From: Eledone cirrhosa
Taxonomy: Eukaryota
Reading direction: 5' to 3'
DNA: 64,000 nt
Assembly (NCBI GenBank): GCA_964016885.1
Contig: OZ024740.1
Coordinates: 222,952,001 to 223,016,000, forward strand
Each line of letters begins with the position of its first letter. Within the stretch, counting starts at the first letter, position 1. The translations under genes were made by a program, and so were the position numbers. Under the pieces are notes generated by a model that ran no database searches, was not told where the DNA came from, and saw only the letters and a program-made list of their open reading frames with translations. Shown here piece by piece: positions 45,079 through 59,588 of this stretch.

Positions 45079-45116
45079 CCTTTTGAAAAGCAGAAGAACT
45101 GCGAAACCGGTAAAGG
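45079..45116 (+). ncRNA. Hammerhead with compensatory U3-A8 core (family E)
   Basis: cctt TTGAAAA gcag(aagaa)ctgc GAAA ccgg TA aagg; intact copy also at 53169-53206(-). Confidence 0.8.
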
Positions 45117-45562
45117 AACCAAAATAGATATATATATTTTTTTAAAAAAATAAGACTCCAGTTGCATTTTCGATTTTATCTCTTTTTCTTTATACTTTCA
45201 CTCGTGTAGGACACCTCGGTTATTTTTCATTTTGTAAAAAAAACCTCACTTTCTAATATATATACGTATATATATATATATATAATTATATATATATATA
45301 TATATATATATATATATATATATATATATATATATATATATTAGCAAATAATAGTTAAATGCAGTCCACTTAGGTGAAGTCCAGTTATGGTATTCCAGGT
45401 AGTGGATGATATTAACGCTTGGCTTGGTTTGACTCAACAAGGCGTTTTCATAGTGATGCTGCGGGTATGCCGTAATTCCTATGTTGTAAACACTTGAAGT
45501 AATAATAAATCAGGAAAGAAGGTTTACATGGTTTGCTATACAAAAAAGTTTTTAATCACATA

Positions 45563-45668
45563 GCTTACATTTGTTTCACTGAACTGGTATGTCTAGAGAT
45601 CGCTATTCGCTTAATTTTGCGTTACTCGATCGCCAATACAGAATTATAACCAGTCAGATCTTCGGAGC
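45563..45668 (-). ncRNA. Hammerhead (U4C, long stem II) in the 3' pLTR of the 46-48 kb PLE
   Basis: gct CCGAAGA t-ctga-ctgg...ccag-ttcag-t GAAA ca(aa)tg TA agc. Confidence 0.65.
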
Positions 45669-46466
45669 ATGCGAGAATGAAGAAAATACACAGGCAAGTA
45701 AAGAAAAGAAAATACAGGCTACTATATGAAGTAGTAATGGCATTCAATTAGAACAATAACAACAATTACAACAATGCTATCAATAAATTATTTAAGGAGA
45801 CCCTGACATTACTTAGGTGGGGGGTATATAATGTATCTAATGTTACGGCGTGTAAAACTAGCTGTCATAAGGCAAAATGAAGCGTTGGCATGTACAAAGT
45901 ATCGTAGTGTATATCAATTTTAAATTATAAAGATGAGCTAGTTTTTACAGTCTTTCCCTTCATCTTCAACAGTATACATGAGTGGGACCACTGTCAAAGC
46001 TAATTAGTTGTTGAGTTAATACAGAGGTTAACGAATTAATATACGCATATATCTACGCACACACACACACACACACACACACACACACACACACATATAT
46101 ATATATATATATACACACATATACACATGCATGTGTACATAGACACATACATACACATCAATATACACTCGTACAAAAATATACATACATGCAAAGAGAT
46201 AAGCGTGCTAATTGTAATTATGGCTGAAAGAAGGTAAAGTAGCATTGTAGTAGTAAAATGAGAAAAACTACGATTTAGGATCAAATGATGGCAGCAGCTG
46301 AGAAGGAGTAAGATTGTTGGTAGATGAGGTACTTACAGACAAATGTGTGGTATAGACTTGTGAAGGATATAGTATACTTAATGAATATATTTCTGTGTGT
46401 AGTAGGTATCCTAATTTAAAGCTATGTTATGTTGGTTCGATTCACGGAGGTTTGAGTCTTATGGAT

Positions 46467-55215: not shown

Positions 55216-57499
55216 TTATATATATATGTATATATATATATATATGTATGTATATATATATATATATATTTAGGTATATATATATATATATATATATATA
55301 TATATATATATATATATATATATACATATATATATATGTATATATATATATATATATATATATATATATATATATATATATGTGTGTGTGTGTGTGTGTA
55401 TATATATATATATATTGGTAAACGGGATAGAAAATGCTGACAAATTGTTCACAGTTGAACAATGGTTTAATTAGGAATAAAGAGCATTAGTGATTGTATG
55501 GGTTAGTATTCAGTTGTGGTTTTAAGTTTTTAAGTTTTTACCGGTTGCGCATTTCTAAATGCTTTTCAAAATTAATTTGGAGATAGAGTGTCCGTGCTGT
55601 TTGCTCTGATCTGATTAGTTTTGGGAATTCTACCTGTTTTTATGTTAAAAAAGTGGCTCCAATTTGCAAAAATTCTTGTGGTCAAAACAATTTTGATTGG
55701 TCGGTAGAGGTCATGTGAATGTAAAAAATTGATTTTGCGCCAAGACTGTTTTTATGTTAAAAAAGTGGCTCCAGCAAAAATTCTTGTGGTCAAAACAATT
55801 TTGATTGGTCGGTAGAGGTCATGTGAATAAAAAATTGGTTTTGCGCCAAGATTGACAAATGACTCTTTCACAACAAATATGTGTGTGTGCGTGTGTGTGT
55901 GTGTGTGTGTGTGTGTGTGTGTGTGTGTGTGTGTGTAGTAGTAGTAGTAGTAAGGTGTTCGATGTTGTGATAATGGTTAGCAGCGATGTGTGTCAAATGG
56001 CTATTAAGATAACTGTGTGTGTGTGTGTGTGTGTGTGTGTGTGTGTGTGTGTGTGTGTGTGTGTGTGTGTATAGCAGAGTAATTCGTGGTGGCAGGGATG
56101 GTCAGTAAGAATGTGTCTGAAAGCAATGGGGGGTATTTTAGCATGTCAGATGATATTTTTCAGCTTTTGTCTTATACGGAGAAGTGCGTGTGTGTGTGTG
56201 TTTGTATATATAAGTCTCTTTGTATGTTGATGTACGCGTGTGTATGTGTGTGTGTATATATATATGTGTGTGTGGGGGGGGGGCAGTATTTTTCCCCCTG
56301 GTAAAATGGTGTACATTATTCGATTTTTTCAGTAAAATCGGTTCTCTTAATAGAACATCAAAAATCTTAACAATAAAAGGTGTGAAATGATATTCACTAT
56401 ATATATATACACATACATATATTCACTATATATATATATATATATATATACATATATACATATATATATGCACATATATTTTTTTGTGTTGCACCATAGA
56501 GCATGTGTGTTTACGTATGTCATCGTGTTTATATGTGGGTAGAGATGTCTGCTGATGTAGGTATGTATGTTGACGTGTGTATGTTGTGGGTTCGTCTTAG
56601 GGAAAAGTGTTTAGACGGGGTCCGTATTTGTTAATGAAGTAAGATTCCTTGCTGATGCGCTGGGTGTGGGTGGCATTATCTTTAAATTTGTAGAAGGGAA
56701 AGATTCTGAAGTTGGGATGATTTTGGGCGGCACAGGTATCAATGTGTTCACTCAGTGGTATTTTCCTGTATTCCCGTATTTTGATTTGGGATCTATGGAC
56801 AGTCATGCGTTGGCGGAGGCTGTTTTTGGTCTGGCCTATGTATTATTCTCGACAACCTGAACAAGTTAATACATATATTAGATTTTCCGATGCACATGTG
56901 AAATTGTGTTTTACTATGAAACGTTGTCCATCTTTGAAATAGAATTCCGAACCCTCTATTAGGTTGATGCAAATGCCACAGTTGGGTCTATCGCATTTTT
57001 TTACTGTGGGTTTCGTTGTTGTGGTTGGCAGTACTTTGGCATGTGTTAAGATGTTTTTCATTAACTTGGATTGTCTTTTGCTCTTTATGATATCATGTGT
57101 TCGTAAAATTTGGTTCATTCTATGGTCCTTTTTCAATACAGGGATATTCTGGAGGATGGTGTGAAAGGCCTCATTGTTGAGGGGGTTGTGTGTGGAGATG
57201 TATGGAAGAGCTTTTAGTTTTGGTTGATTTACTTTAGGGTGTCTAAGGTCCTGGGTACTGAGTTTTAGGGCACGTTGGATTCCATTGTCAATTAGTGATG
57301 CAGGGTAGTCCCTGCCTATGAGTGATGTCTTTAGTTCTTTTAGCCGTAAGTAGCAGATGTTTTTATTGGAGACTATAGTACAGATTCTCTTGTCTAAGTT
57401 GTAGGGAATATTAATTTTAACGTGTCTAGGGTGGCAAGAGTTGAAGGGGAGATATTGCTTGGAGTCTGTGGGCTTGTAGTAGATGTCTGTTTCTATTAT

Positions 57500-58489
57500 G
57501 GGCTCAACACAAATATTAACTTCACGATGGAATACAGCCATCAACAACTCCCCTTCCTCGACATCCTCATTAAGATCCATAACAAAAAAATAGAAACAGA
57601 CATATACTACAAGCCCACAGACTCCAAGCAATATCTCCCCTTCAACTCTTGCCACCCTAGACACGTTAAAATTAATATTCCCTACAACTTAGCCAAGAGA
57701 ATCTGTACTATTGTCTCCAATAAAAACATCTGCTACTTACGTCTACAAGAACTAAAGGACACACTCATAGGCAGGGACTACCCTGCATCACTAATTGACA
57801 ATGGAATCCAACGTGCCCTAAAACTCAGTACCCAGGACCTTAGACACCCTAAAGTAAATCAACCAAAACTAAAAGCTCTTCCATACATCTCCACACACAA
57901 CCCCCTCAACAATGAGGCCTTTGACACCATCCTCCAGAACATCCCTGTATTGAAAAAGGACCTTAGAATGAACCAAATTCTACGAACACACGATATCATA
58001 AAGAGCAAAAGACAATCCAAGTCAATGAAAAACATCTTAACACATGCCAAAGTACTGCCAACCACAACAACGAAACCCACAGTAAAAAAATGCGATAGAC
58101 CCAACTGTGGCATTTGCATCAAACTAATAGAGGGTTCGGAATTCTATTTCAAAGATGGACAACGTTTTATAGTAAAACACAATTTCACATGTGCATCGTA
58201 AAATCTAATATATCTATTAACTTGTTCAGGTTGTCGAGAACAATACATAGGCCAGACTAAAAACAGCCTCCGCCAACGCATGACTGTCCATAGATCCCAA
58301 ATCAAAATACGGGAATACAGGAAAATACCACTGAGTGAACACATTGATACCTGTGCCGCCCAAAATCATCCCAACTTCAGAATCTTTCCCCTCTACAAAT
58401 CTAAAGATAATGCCACCCACACCCAGCGCATCAGCAAGGAATCTTACTTCATTAACAAATACGGACCCCGTCTAAACACTTCTCCCTAA
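57500..58489 (+). pseudogene. PLE RT thumb + Zn-finger GIY-YIG endonuclease (Neptune-like); mirror copy at 56597-57498(-)
   Basis: INFTME..LPFLDILI..TDIYYKPTD..YL..SCHP; CDRPNCGIC..FTCAS.NLIY.LTCSGC.EQYIGQT..LRQRMTVHR; one stop per arm. Confidence 0.9.
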
Positions 58490-59551
58490 GACGAACCCAC
58501 AACATACACACGTCAACATACATACCTACATCAGCACACGTCTCTACCCACATATAAACACAATGACATACGTAAATACACATGCTCTATGGTGCAACAC
58601 AAAAAAATATATGTGCATATATATATATGTATATATGTATATATATATACATATATATATATAGTGAATATATGTATGTGTATATATATATAGTGAATAT
58701 CATTTCACACCTTTTATTGTTAAGATTTTTGATGTTCTATTAAGAGAACCGATTTTACTGAAAAAAATCGAATAATGTACACCATTTTACCCGGGGGAAA
58801 AAATACTGGTCCACCCACACACACACACACACACACACACACACACATACACACGCGTACATCAACATACAAAGAGACTTATATATACACACACACACGC
58901 ACTTCTCCGTATAATACAAAAGCTGAAAAATATCATCTGACATGCTAAAATACCCCCCATTGCTTTCAGACACATTCTTACTGACCATCCCTGCCACCAC
59001 GAATTACTCTGCTATACACACACACACACACACACACACACACACACACACACACACACACACACACACACACACACACACACACACAGTTATCTTAATA
59101 GCCATTTGACACACATCGCTGCTAACCATTATCACAACATCGAACACCTTACTACTACTACTACGCACACACACACACACACACACACACACACACACAC
59201 ACACACACACACACACACACACACACACACACACACACACACATATGTGTGTTGTGAAAGAGTCATTTGTCAATCTTGGCGCAAAACCAATTTTTTATTC
59301 ACATGACTTCTACCGACCAATCAAAATTGTTTTGACCACAAGATTTTTGCTGGAGCCACTTTTTAAACATAAAAACAGTCTTGGCGCAAAATCAATTTTT
59401 TACATTCACATGACCTCTACCGACCAATCAAAATTGTTTTGACCACAAGAATTTTTGCAAATTGGAGCCACTTTTTTAACATAAAAACAGGTAGAATTCC
59501 CAAAACTAATCAGATCAGAGCAAACAGCACGGACACTCTATCTCAAAATTA

Positions 59552-59588
59552 TTTTTGAAAAGCATTTAGAAATGCGCAACCGGTAAAA
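59552..59588 (+). ncRNA. U3-A8 hammerhead (with A13C) in the Neptune-like pLTR; mirror at ~55536-55571(-)
   Basis: ttt TTGAAAA gcatt(taga)aatgc GCAA ccgg TA aaa. Confidence 0.65.

Follow-up and report, generated by a model that had tools for sequence, protein, structure and literature searches.

Hammerhead motifs with a U3-A8 core

Natural hammerhead ribozymes in which the core pair C3-G8 is exchanged for U3-A8 have already been published, those of the pseudo-long terminal repeats (pLTRs) of Penelope-like elements (PLEs) included. Perreault et al. (2011, PMC3088659) described natural covariants of this kind that are active in vitro, and Cervera and De la Peña (2014, PMC4209133) reported about 1,300 U3-A8 motifs in the pLTRs of Schistosoma Cercyon PLEs and described PLE hammerheads as acting as dimers via helix III. 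In the 3.0-Gb genome of Eledone cirrhosa, motifs of the same kind stand in a (TA)n-rich stretch of 64 kb (contig OZ024740.1, positions 222,952,001-223,016,000), here called the window. It is probable that type I U3-A8 hammerheads reside here in two sister PLE families and in a 591-bp repeat, with weak self-cutting predicted for dimers only, one of the two families, which has an additional C at position 13, being near silent.

The motifs of E. cirrhosa share with the Cercyon PLEs of Schistosoma mansoni (PMC4209133) the type I fold, the U3-A8 pair, the position in pLTRs, the mostly truncated or inverted copies and the predicted activity as dimers, and both cores found here, UUGAAAA and UUGAUAA, occur in Fig. 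S3 of that paper. Unlike Cercyon, the hosts are of the Neptune type, helix III is a 6-nt palindrome, copies are about ten times more numerous and one family carries an A13C change. The compensatory swap is identical to that of Perreault et al. (PMC3088659), although the rare examples listed there contrast with its fixation here in tens of thousands of repeat copies. The 591-bp repeat resembles the animal non-LTR retrozymes (Cervera and De la Peña 2020, PMC7229834; bioRxiv 10.64898/2026.07.22.740005) in being a non-coding tandem repeat with one type I hammerhead per monomer, whereas those retrozymes are quoted at 150-450 bp and the present repeat, known from DNA, has a longer monomer, a U3-A8 core and a long stem II extension. 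The PLEs agree with the Neptune/Nematis elements of Craig et al. (2021, PMC8557442) in their reverse transcriptase (RT), CX2-5CxxC linker, C-terminal GIY-YIG domain and pLTRs, and likewise in their inverted 5'-truncated copies, 30-40-bp tail and (TA)n targets; the clade is assigned by domain layout rather than by phylogeny, and Neptune cannot be told from Nematis by the linker.

Hammerhead motifs of the window

The window was scanned for folds of the type I hammerhead in which positions 3, 7 and 8 could be any base; this returned three with U3-A8 and GAAA, their U3 lying at 45083 (+), 53202 (-) and 50538 (+). Twenty block-shuffled windows together gave one loose U3-A8 match and no palindromic one, and backwards-pattern controls for the family patterns gave 0 or 1 match genome-wide, so the folds of the window are not due to chance; a loose A3-U8 match at 40152 in the same scan is taken as chance. 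The motif with U3 at 59555 emerges only after position 13 is relaxed. No hammerhead model was among the Rfam matches listed (150 of 339 at E<=1), a list flooded by microsatellite matches, and (TA)n dominates the repeat listing. Numbering within the hammerhead follows the usage of the cited papers.

45079..45116 (+): family E type I hammerhead with U3 45083, A8 45088, A13, palindromic helix III and A17 45112 (fold scan)
53169..53206 (-): second family E hammerhead, identical in motif sequence to the 45079 copy, U3 53202, host fragment 53027-53245 (fold scan)
19711..19748 (-): decayed family E copy with U3 but U8, host fragment 19635-19788 (sequence comparison)
45041..45260 (+): 5'-truncated 3' pLTR end of a family E Neptune-type PLE, flanked by (TA)n runs (assigned from upstream same-strand GIY-YIG frames in loci L106, L110 and L170)
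59552..59588 (+): pLTR hammerhead with U3 59555, A8, C13 59577, a stem I of three A-U pairs, A17 59585 and a GUA site (relaxed fold scan)
about 55536..55571 (-): mirror C13 hammerhead with U3 55569 and C13 55547, stem I of only 2 bp (relaxed scan)
55409..59750 (no strand): 5'-truncated Neptune-type PLE inserted as a fold-back, with its right arm at about 57498-59750 (+), its left arm inverted at about 55409-57497 and (TA)n at the ends
57398..58492 (+): C-terminal remnant of the PLE frame with RT end, CxxxxCxxC linker, in-frame stop and GIY-YIG, a dead copy (Pfam, translation)
50533..50620 (+): retrozyme-type hammerhead with U3 50538, A8, A13, C17 50615 (GUC site), 5-bp stem I and long stem II extension (fold scan)
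50319..50695 (+): part (377 bp) of a 591-bp tandem monomer, the one bearing the 50533 hammerhead, with an inverted piece at 49860-50101 and a fragment at 19807-19876

The motifs at 45079-45116 (+) and 53169-53206 (-) have the core UUGAAAA, 4-bp stems I and II, a palindromic helix III and a GUA site, and that at 50533-50620 (+) has the core UUGAUAA and again a palindromic helix III. An earlier note on this DNA had read all three as U3-A8 hammerheads with paired stems, and this reading holds, as does its statement that positions 3 and 8 form a Watson-Crick pair, which makes the swap compensatory (PMC3088659). With the two C13 motifs counted in, the core N3-U-G-A-N7-N8-A9 with a pairable 3/8 occurs as U3-A8 at 45083, 53202, 59555, 55569 and 50538, and the U16.1-H17 site is GUA in family E and the pLTR family and GUC in the retrozyme. 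The copy at 19711-19748, which the note had counted with the others, has no U3-A8 motif: position 8 is U, there is a G-U change at 10.1-11.1 and the helix III palindrome is broken. At 59552-59588 and its mirror the U3-A8 pair is as the note described it, but the core has GCAA in place of GAAA, an additional A13C change that had been overlooked, and stem I consists of three A-U pairs (two in the mirror). The consensus G12-A13-A14-A15.1 is present in family E and the retrozyme and absent from the 59552 family, whose motif is filed here as a hammerhead descendant outside the consensus; no alternative core register that would give back GAAA was found by eye.

Two sister families of Penelope-like elements

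The family E and pLTR motifs are homologous (blastn, 76-78% over 65 nt), and natural copies of the two families, in loci L110 and L101 respectively, agree at 64% over 130 nt upstream and at 84% within the motif. In L106, L110 and L170, GIY-YIG frames with 44-59% protein identity to the PLE of the pLTR family lie on the same strand upstream of the E motif. Because of these frames and the natural-copy alignment, family E is assigned to the pLTR of a sister PLE family, and the two motifs are one lineage, made up of pLTRs from two sister families of Neptune-type PLEs. The earlier note had spoken of two unrelated lineages; the homology of family E and the pLTR motif leaves at most two with U3-A8 in the window, and these may not be independent.

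Genome-wide, the E-type U3/A8/A13 pattern has 13,599 matches and the pLTR family 10,411 by its motif pattern and 10,490 by flanks alone; counts are of exact patterns, and the tallies given below were made by eye among the first 100 matches listed per pattern. With the retrozyme, exact family patterns locate some 30,000 motifs beyond the CUGANGA descriptors, which miss U3-A8 motifs, as the earlier note held and PMC4209133 states. Eight family E motifs with C3-A8, six of them spaced about 9.6 kb, stand at G000:C1:348,863,669-348,949,713 and are a local tandem duplication of a single mutated E copy.

The 59552 motif sits in the 3' pLTR of the fold-back insertion 55409-59750, and the remnant frame 57398..58492 within it contains a GIY-YIG domain (Pfam E 1.4e-8) and is 99% identical to the RT frame of L101. 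Three full-length copies (L101, L102 and L108), from eight stretches picked for holding two motifs, carry paired motifs as direct repeats around RT frames, spaced 4.8 kb in L101 and L102, with C13 in both pLTRs. RVT_1 is matched in L101 at E 1e-6, just below the Pfam cutoff, and GIY-YIG at E 1e-8 to 9e-7. An RT followed by a C-terminal GIY-YIG domain is the layout of endonuclease-bearing (EN+) PLEs of the Neptune/Nematis type; the CX2-5CxxC linker ahead of the endonuclease is present in the window translation and in the E-linked frames, and pLTR direct repeats with a hammerhead, inverted truncated copies and a short tail complete the picture of a PLE. For 26 of 30 flank-anchored loci, (TA)n within 400 nt marks the end of the element, mostly at two 3' end points 39 nt apart, which correspond to the tail that PMC8557442 and PMC11167929 describe for PLEs. 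In L101:3312-6571 (-), some 450 codons that precede the RT region, joined to it by a frameshift in this copy, have no Pfam match.

Splice-like signals were seen by eye around both PLE hammerheads (window 45045-45210 (+) and 59490-59690 (+)), with a GT donor-like site upstream and, downstream, a pyrimidine tract and an AG; family E shows them most plainly. The PLE ribozyme may lie inside a pLTR intron; contigs of unknown kind from the C13 family contained no joint fitting the splice-like sites and no cleavage ends, which is no evidence either way.

C13 as the norm of one family

Of the 100 matches listed for the flank-anchored pLTR family, all have U3-A8 and 98 have C13, and C13 as a local mutation or assembly error was rejected on this ground. 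Contigs from runs X1 and X6 also speak against such an error, with no variant at or above 5% listed at the C13 site, as does one of 256 nt from X5 that shows no difference, though these runs are perhaps not independent of the assembly. The family is young, with a median of 2% from consensus in its largest subgroup. A13 on the pLTR-type stem occurs in 38 copies genome-wide, which are scattered: 30 of them, placed on a 113-row tree, require 23 changes, where shuffling gives 26.7 on average (bootstrap not settled). A master subfamily with A13 driving the C13 family was rejected in view of this number and scatter. A Fisher test of motif against flank conservation in the C13 subfamilies (1/36 against 37/174 columns) was discarded as circular, because the motif pattern itself had selected most copies. 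No report of a natural C13 core was found in the literature searched, a weak negative, since the main biochemical studies were not covered and figures were not visible.

A retrozyme-type tandem repeat

The retrozyme pattern has 6,351 matches genome-wide, with U3-A8 in 99 of 100 among those listed. The repeat has a tandem period of 590-607, carries a hammerhead in all 11 pattern-located monomers of loci L173 and L174, and is non-coding (longest stop-free frame 86 codons), which is the retrozyme layout of a tandem non-coding repeat with one type I hammerhead per monomer. The 591-bp monomer has a GC content of 43% and is predicted to be highly paired when folded as a circle, both traits in keeping with the animal non-LTR retrozymes. 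In blastn it has no match to three PLE loci, which does not by itself prove a separate origin; a preprint (bioRxiv 10.64898/2026.07.22.740005) argues that animal retrozymes derive from pLTRs, so that U3-A8 in the retrozyme may not have arisen separately. At L173:3900-5700, runs X4 and X5 give single contigs whose 620-621 nt amount to roughly one monomer and a word length, with differences that are mostly G>A; these would fit a collapsed tandem or a circle.

Signs of past selection on the fold

The double change at positions 3 and 8 was regarded in the earlier note as a sign of selection on catalysis. This was overstated, for a double change fixed in a family is a single event in a master element and not repeated evidence; the stems, which covary from family to family, give better support for selection. 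Stem II pairs vary by family with pairing intact (10.2-11.2 is C-G, A-U or G-C; 10.4-11.4 is G-C or U-A), N7 is A, C or U across family representatives, and stems I, II and III are all present with covariation, helix III forming between copies and stem I being marginal in the C13 family. A looser pattern, which imposed the core letters and left stem pairing unconstrained, gave 963 matches against 45 in its control, a list made up of older families together with mutated E and C13 copies. The older families have other stem II sequences and A13, and 3 of 13 of their loci have a PLE protein match; 100 listed matches comprise 93 with U3-A8, 5 with U3-G8, 2 with C3-A8 and none with C3-G8. This turnover of stems with kept pairing points to past selection on the U3-A8 fold, C13 appearing as a derived state in one branch.

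Such selection is visible only between families and not within them. Family E and the pLTR family together have 198 non-U3 copies, with G8 in 0 of 100 among those listed, 112 copies with U3 and non-A8, and 177 copies with G or U at position 13. After insertion, positions 3 and 8 mutate one at a time, as they would in dead copies of any kind; to the letter this is the independent variation that the earlier note had set against its own claim, and it is silent on selection. Covariation of 3 and 8 inside families was dropped as a test for selection, being uninformative where about one double mutant is expected from single-change rates.

That all of the motifs are fossils is very unlikely. On this account U3-A8 came about by drift in AT-rich masters once cleavage had stopped mattering, and the sequence was kept for some other role of the pLTR, such as promoter, 5' untranslated region, intron or protein-binding site. 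C-to-U and G-to-A are both transitions and the genome is AT-rich, positions 3 and 8 vary independently among copies, cleavage is dispensable for PLE insertion in vitro (PMC11167929) and Naiad PLEs spread without a canonical hammerhead (PMC8557442). Drift alone, however, sits poorly with wholly different stem II sequences that still pair, a helix III that is palindromic and an N7 that varies, and the retrozyme motif occurs once per tandem monomer, a layout shown to give self-cut monomers (PMC7229834).

Predicted activity

In the mechanism proposed here, the palindromic helix III would pair between two copies in one transcript (the 5' and 3' pLTRs, or tandem monomers) and stem I would swap partners between the copies; U3 would take A8 as its partner, just as C3 takes G8, and cleavage would fall after N17. 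The swap likely goes back to a single ancient event in the common ancestor of the ACCGGU-helix PLE clade, with perhaps a separate one in the retrozyme. Co-folding gives the intermolecular 15.1-16.1 pair a probability of 0.84-0.92 in the dimer ensemble, in which stem I pairing stands at 0.00 in the C13 family and at 0.99 in the retrozyme, and the active dimer lies 1.4 kcal/mol above the best dimer fold in family E and 10 kcal/mol above it in the C13 family.

The retrozyme, with its GUC site, strong stem I and tandem copies, is most likely still cutting and releasing monomers; as a candidate for activity it ranks first, and the C13 motif last. Family E would likely cut slowly because U3 can also pair with A17 (0.59 in the dimer ensemble), which corresponds to C3-G17, a pair whose inhibitory effect is discussed in PMC3884650. 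The A13C change, together with a stem I that is very weak, makes present-day catalysis by the C13 motif doubtful; A13 mutants are 10-100-fold slower (cited in PMC4075628). Damage that is tolerated is a likelier account of the C13 core than a new design for catalysis, and the C13 family likely spread without need for efficient cleavage. In a lizard PLE, ribozyme mutants had no effect on in vitro insertion and cleavage took place only with protein (PMC11167929).

This reading predicts self-cleavage, and several points weigh against one part of it or another. Monomer folding energies of six U3 motifs are ordinary (z +0.5 to -1.8), and in an all-double-mutant scan the 3-8 pair was rescued by G3-C8 only and not by U3-A8 (PMC9901934), so in certain contexts U3-A8 can work badly. 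Most listed C13 copies, across three loop variants, keep the remaining core bases and helix III, which fits continued use, although the youth of the family may have left little time to decay. Energy models, finally, cannot capture help from tertiary structure or from proteins, and the ribozyme of the lizard PLE needed its protein.

A different view is that all three motifs, the U3-A8-C13 variant included, are active under current selection, C13 being tolerated, perhaps with the help of the element's protein. We consider this unlikely, and equally improbable its particular consequence that a young PLE family of more than 10,000 copies has a hammerhead with U3, A8 and C13 that still cuts, possibly only when protein-bound. 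C13 is fixed across three loop subfamilies and in both pLTRs of L101, L102 and L108, the A13 copies are only 38 and scattered on the tree, stem II of the pLTR family is longer than that of family E, A13 changes are among the milder core mutations (PMC4075628), and a PLE hammerhead did need protein for cutting (PMC11167929). Yet a stem I of three A-U pairs has a predicted pairing of about zero, the active dimer is much farther from the best fold than in family E, all 56 hammerheads in Fig. S3 of PMC4209133 have GAAA, and no second change able to compensate C13 was seen.

Other repeats of the window

Both core types, C3-G8 and U3-A8, are present in the window, canonical C3-G8 folds occurring in other repeats (2650, 3448 and 63138 in the fold scan).

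2646-2700 (+): canonical C3-G8 hammerhead-like fold (fold scan)
3370-3453 (-): canonical C3-G8 hammerhead-like fold (fold scan)
63130-63195 (+): canonical C3-G8 hammerhead-like fold (fold scan)
54510-54570 (+): canonical C3-G8 hammerhead-like fold, decayed, inside the fold-back 54245-54720 (by eye)

A stop-free frame of 640 codons at 46470-48389 (-) has, by eye, a YRDD RT-like motif and a GIY-YIG-like C-terminus and is probably another PLE family; broken frames at 60334-61930 (-), with a YRDD motif and a GIY-YIG-like end, are probably a third PLE fragment. Neither has a Pfam match. The window further holds a frame of 1,039 codons of the long interspersed nuclear element (LINE) type at 4378-7500 (-), with endonuclease, RT and zinc-binding domains, RT fragments at 13634-14146 and 22914-23495, and a 99-nt repeat resembling a short interspersed nuclear element (SINE) in three copies (24616-24714, 25487-25585 and 63458-63556).

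Implications for Penelope-like elements

The U3-A8 swap is nothing new in kind. What one genome offers here is a natural series, from the retrozyme with its GUC site through family E with a possible U3-A17 brake to the C13 sister family, by which a single assay could ask whether PLEs have any need of the hammerhead, which is unclear according to PMC8557442. Cleavage by the C13 motif would make it a natural A13C core and would widen the consensus where the base is treated as invariant; without cleavage, the family would be a natural test of a PLE that reached 10,000 copies with a crippled ribozyme.

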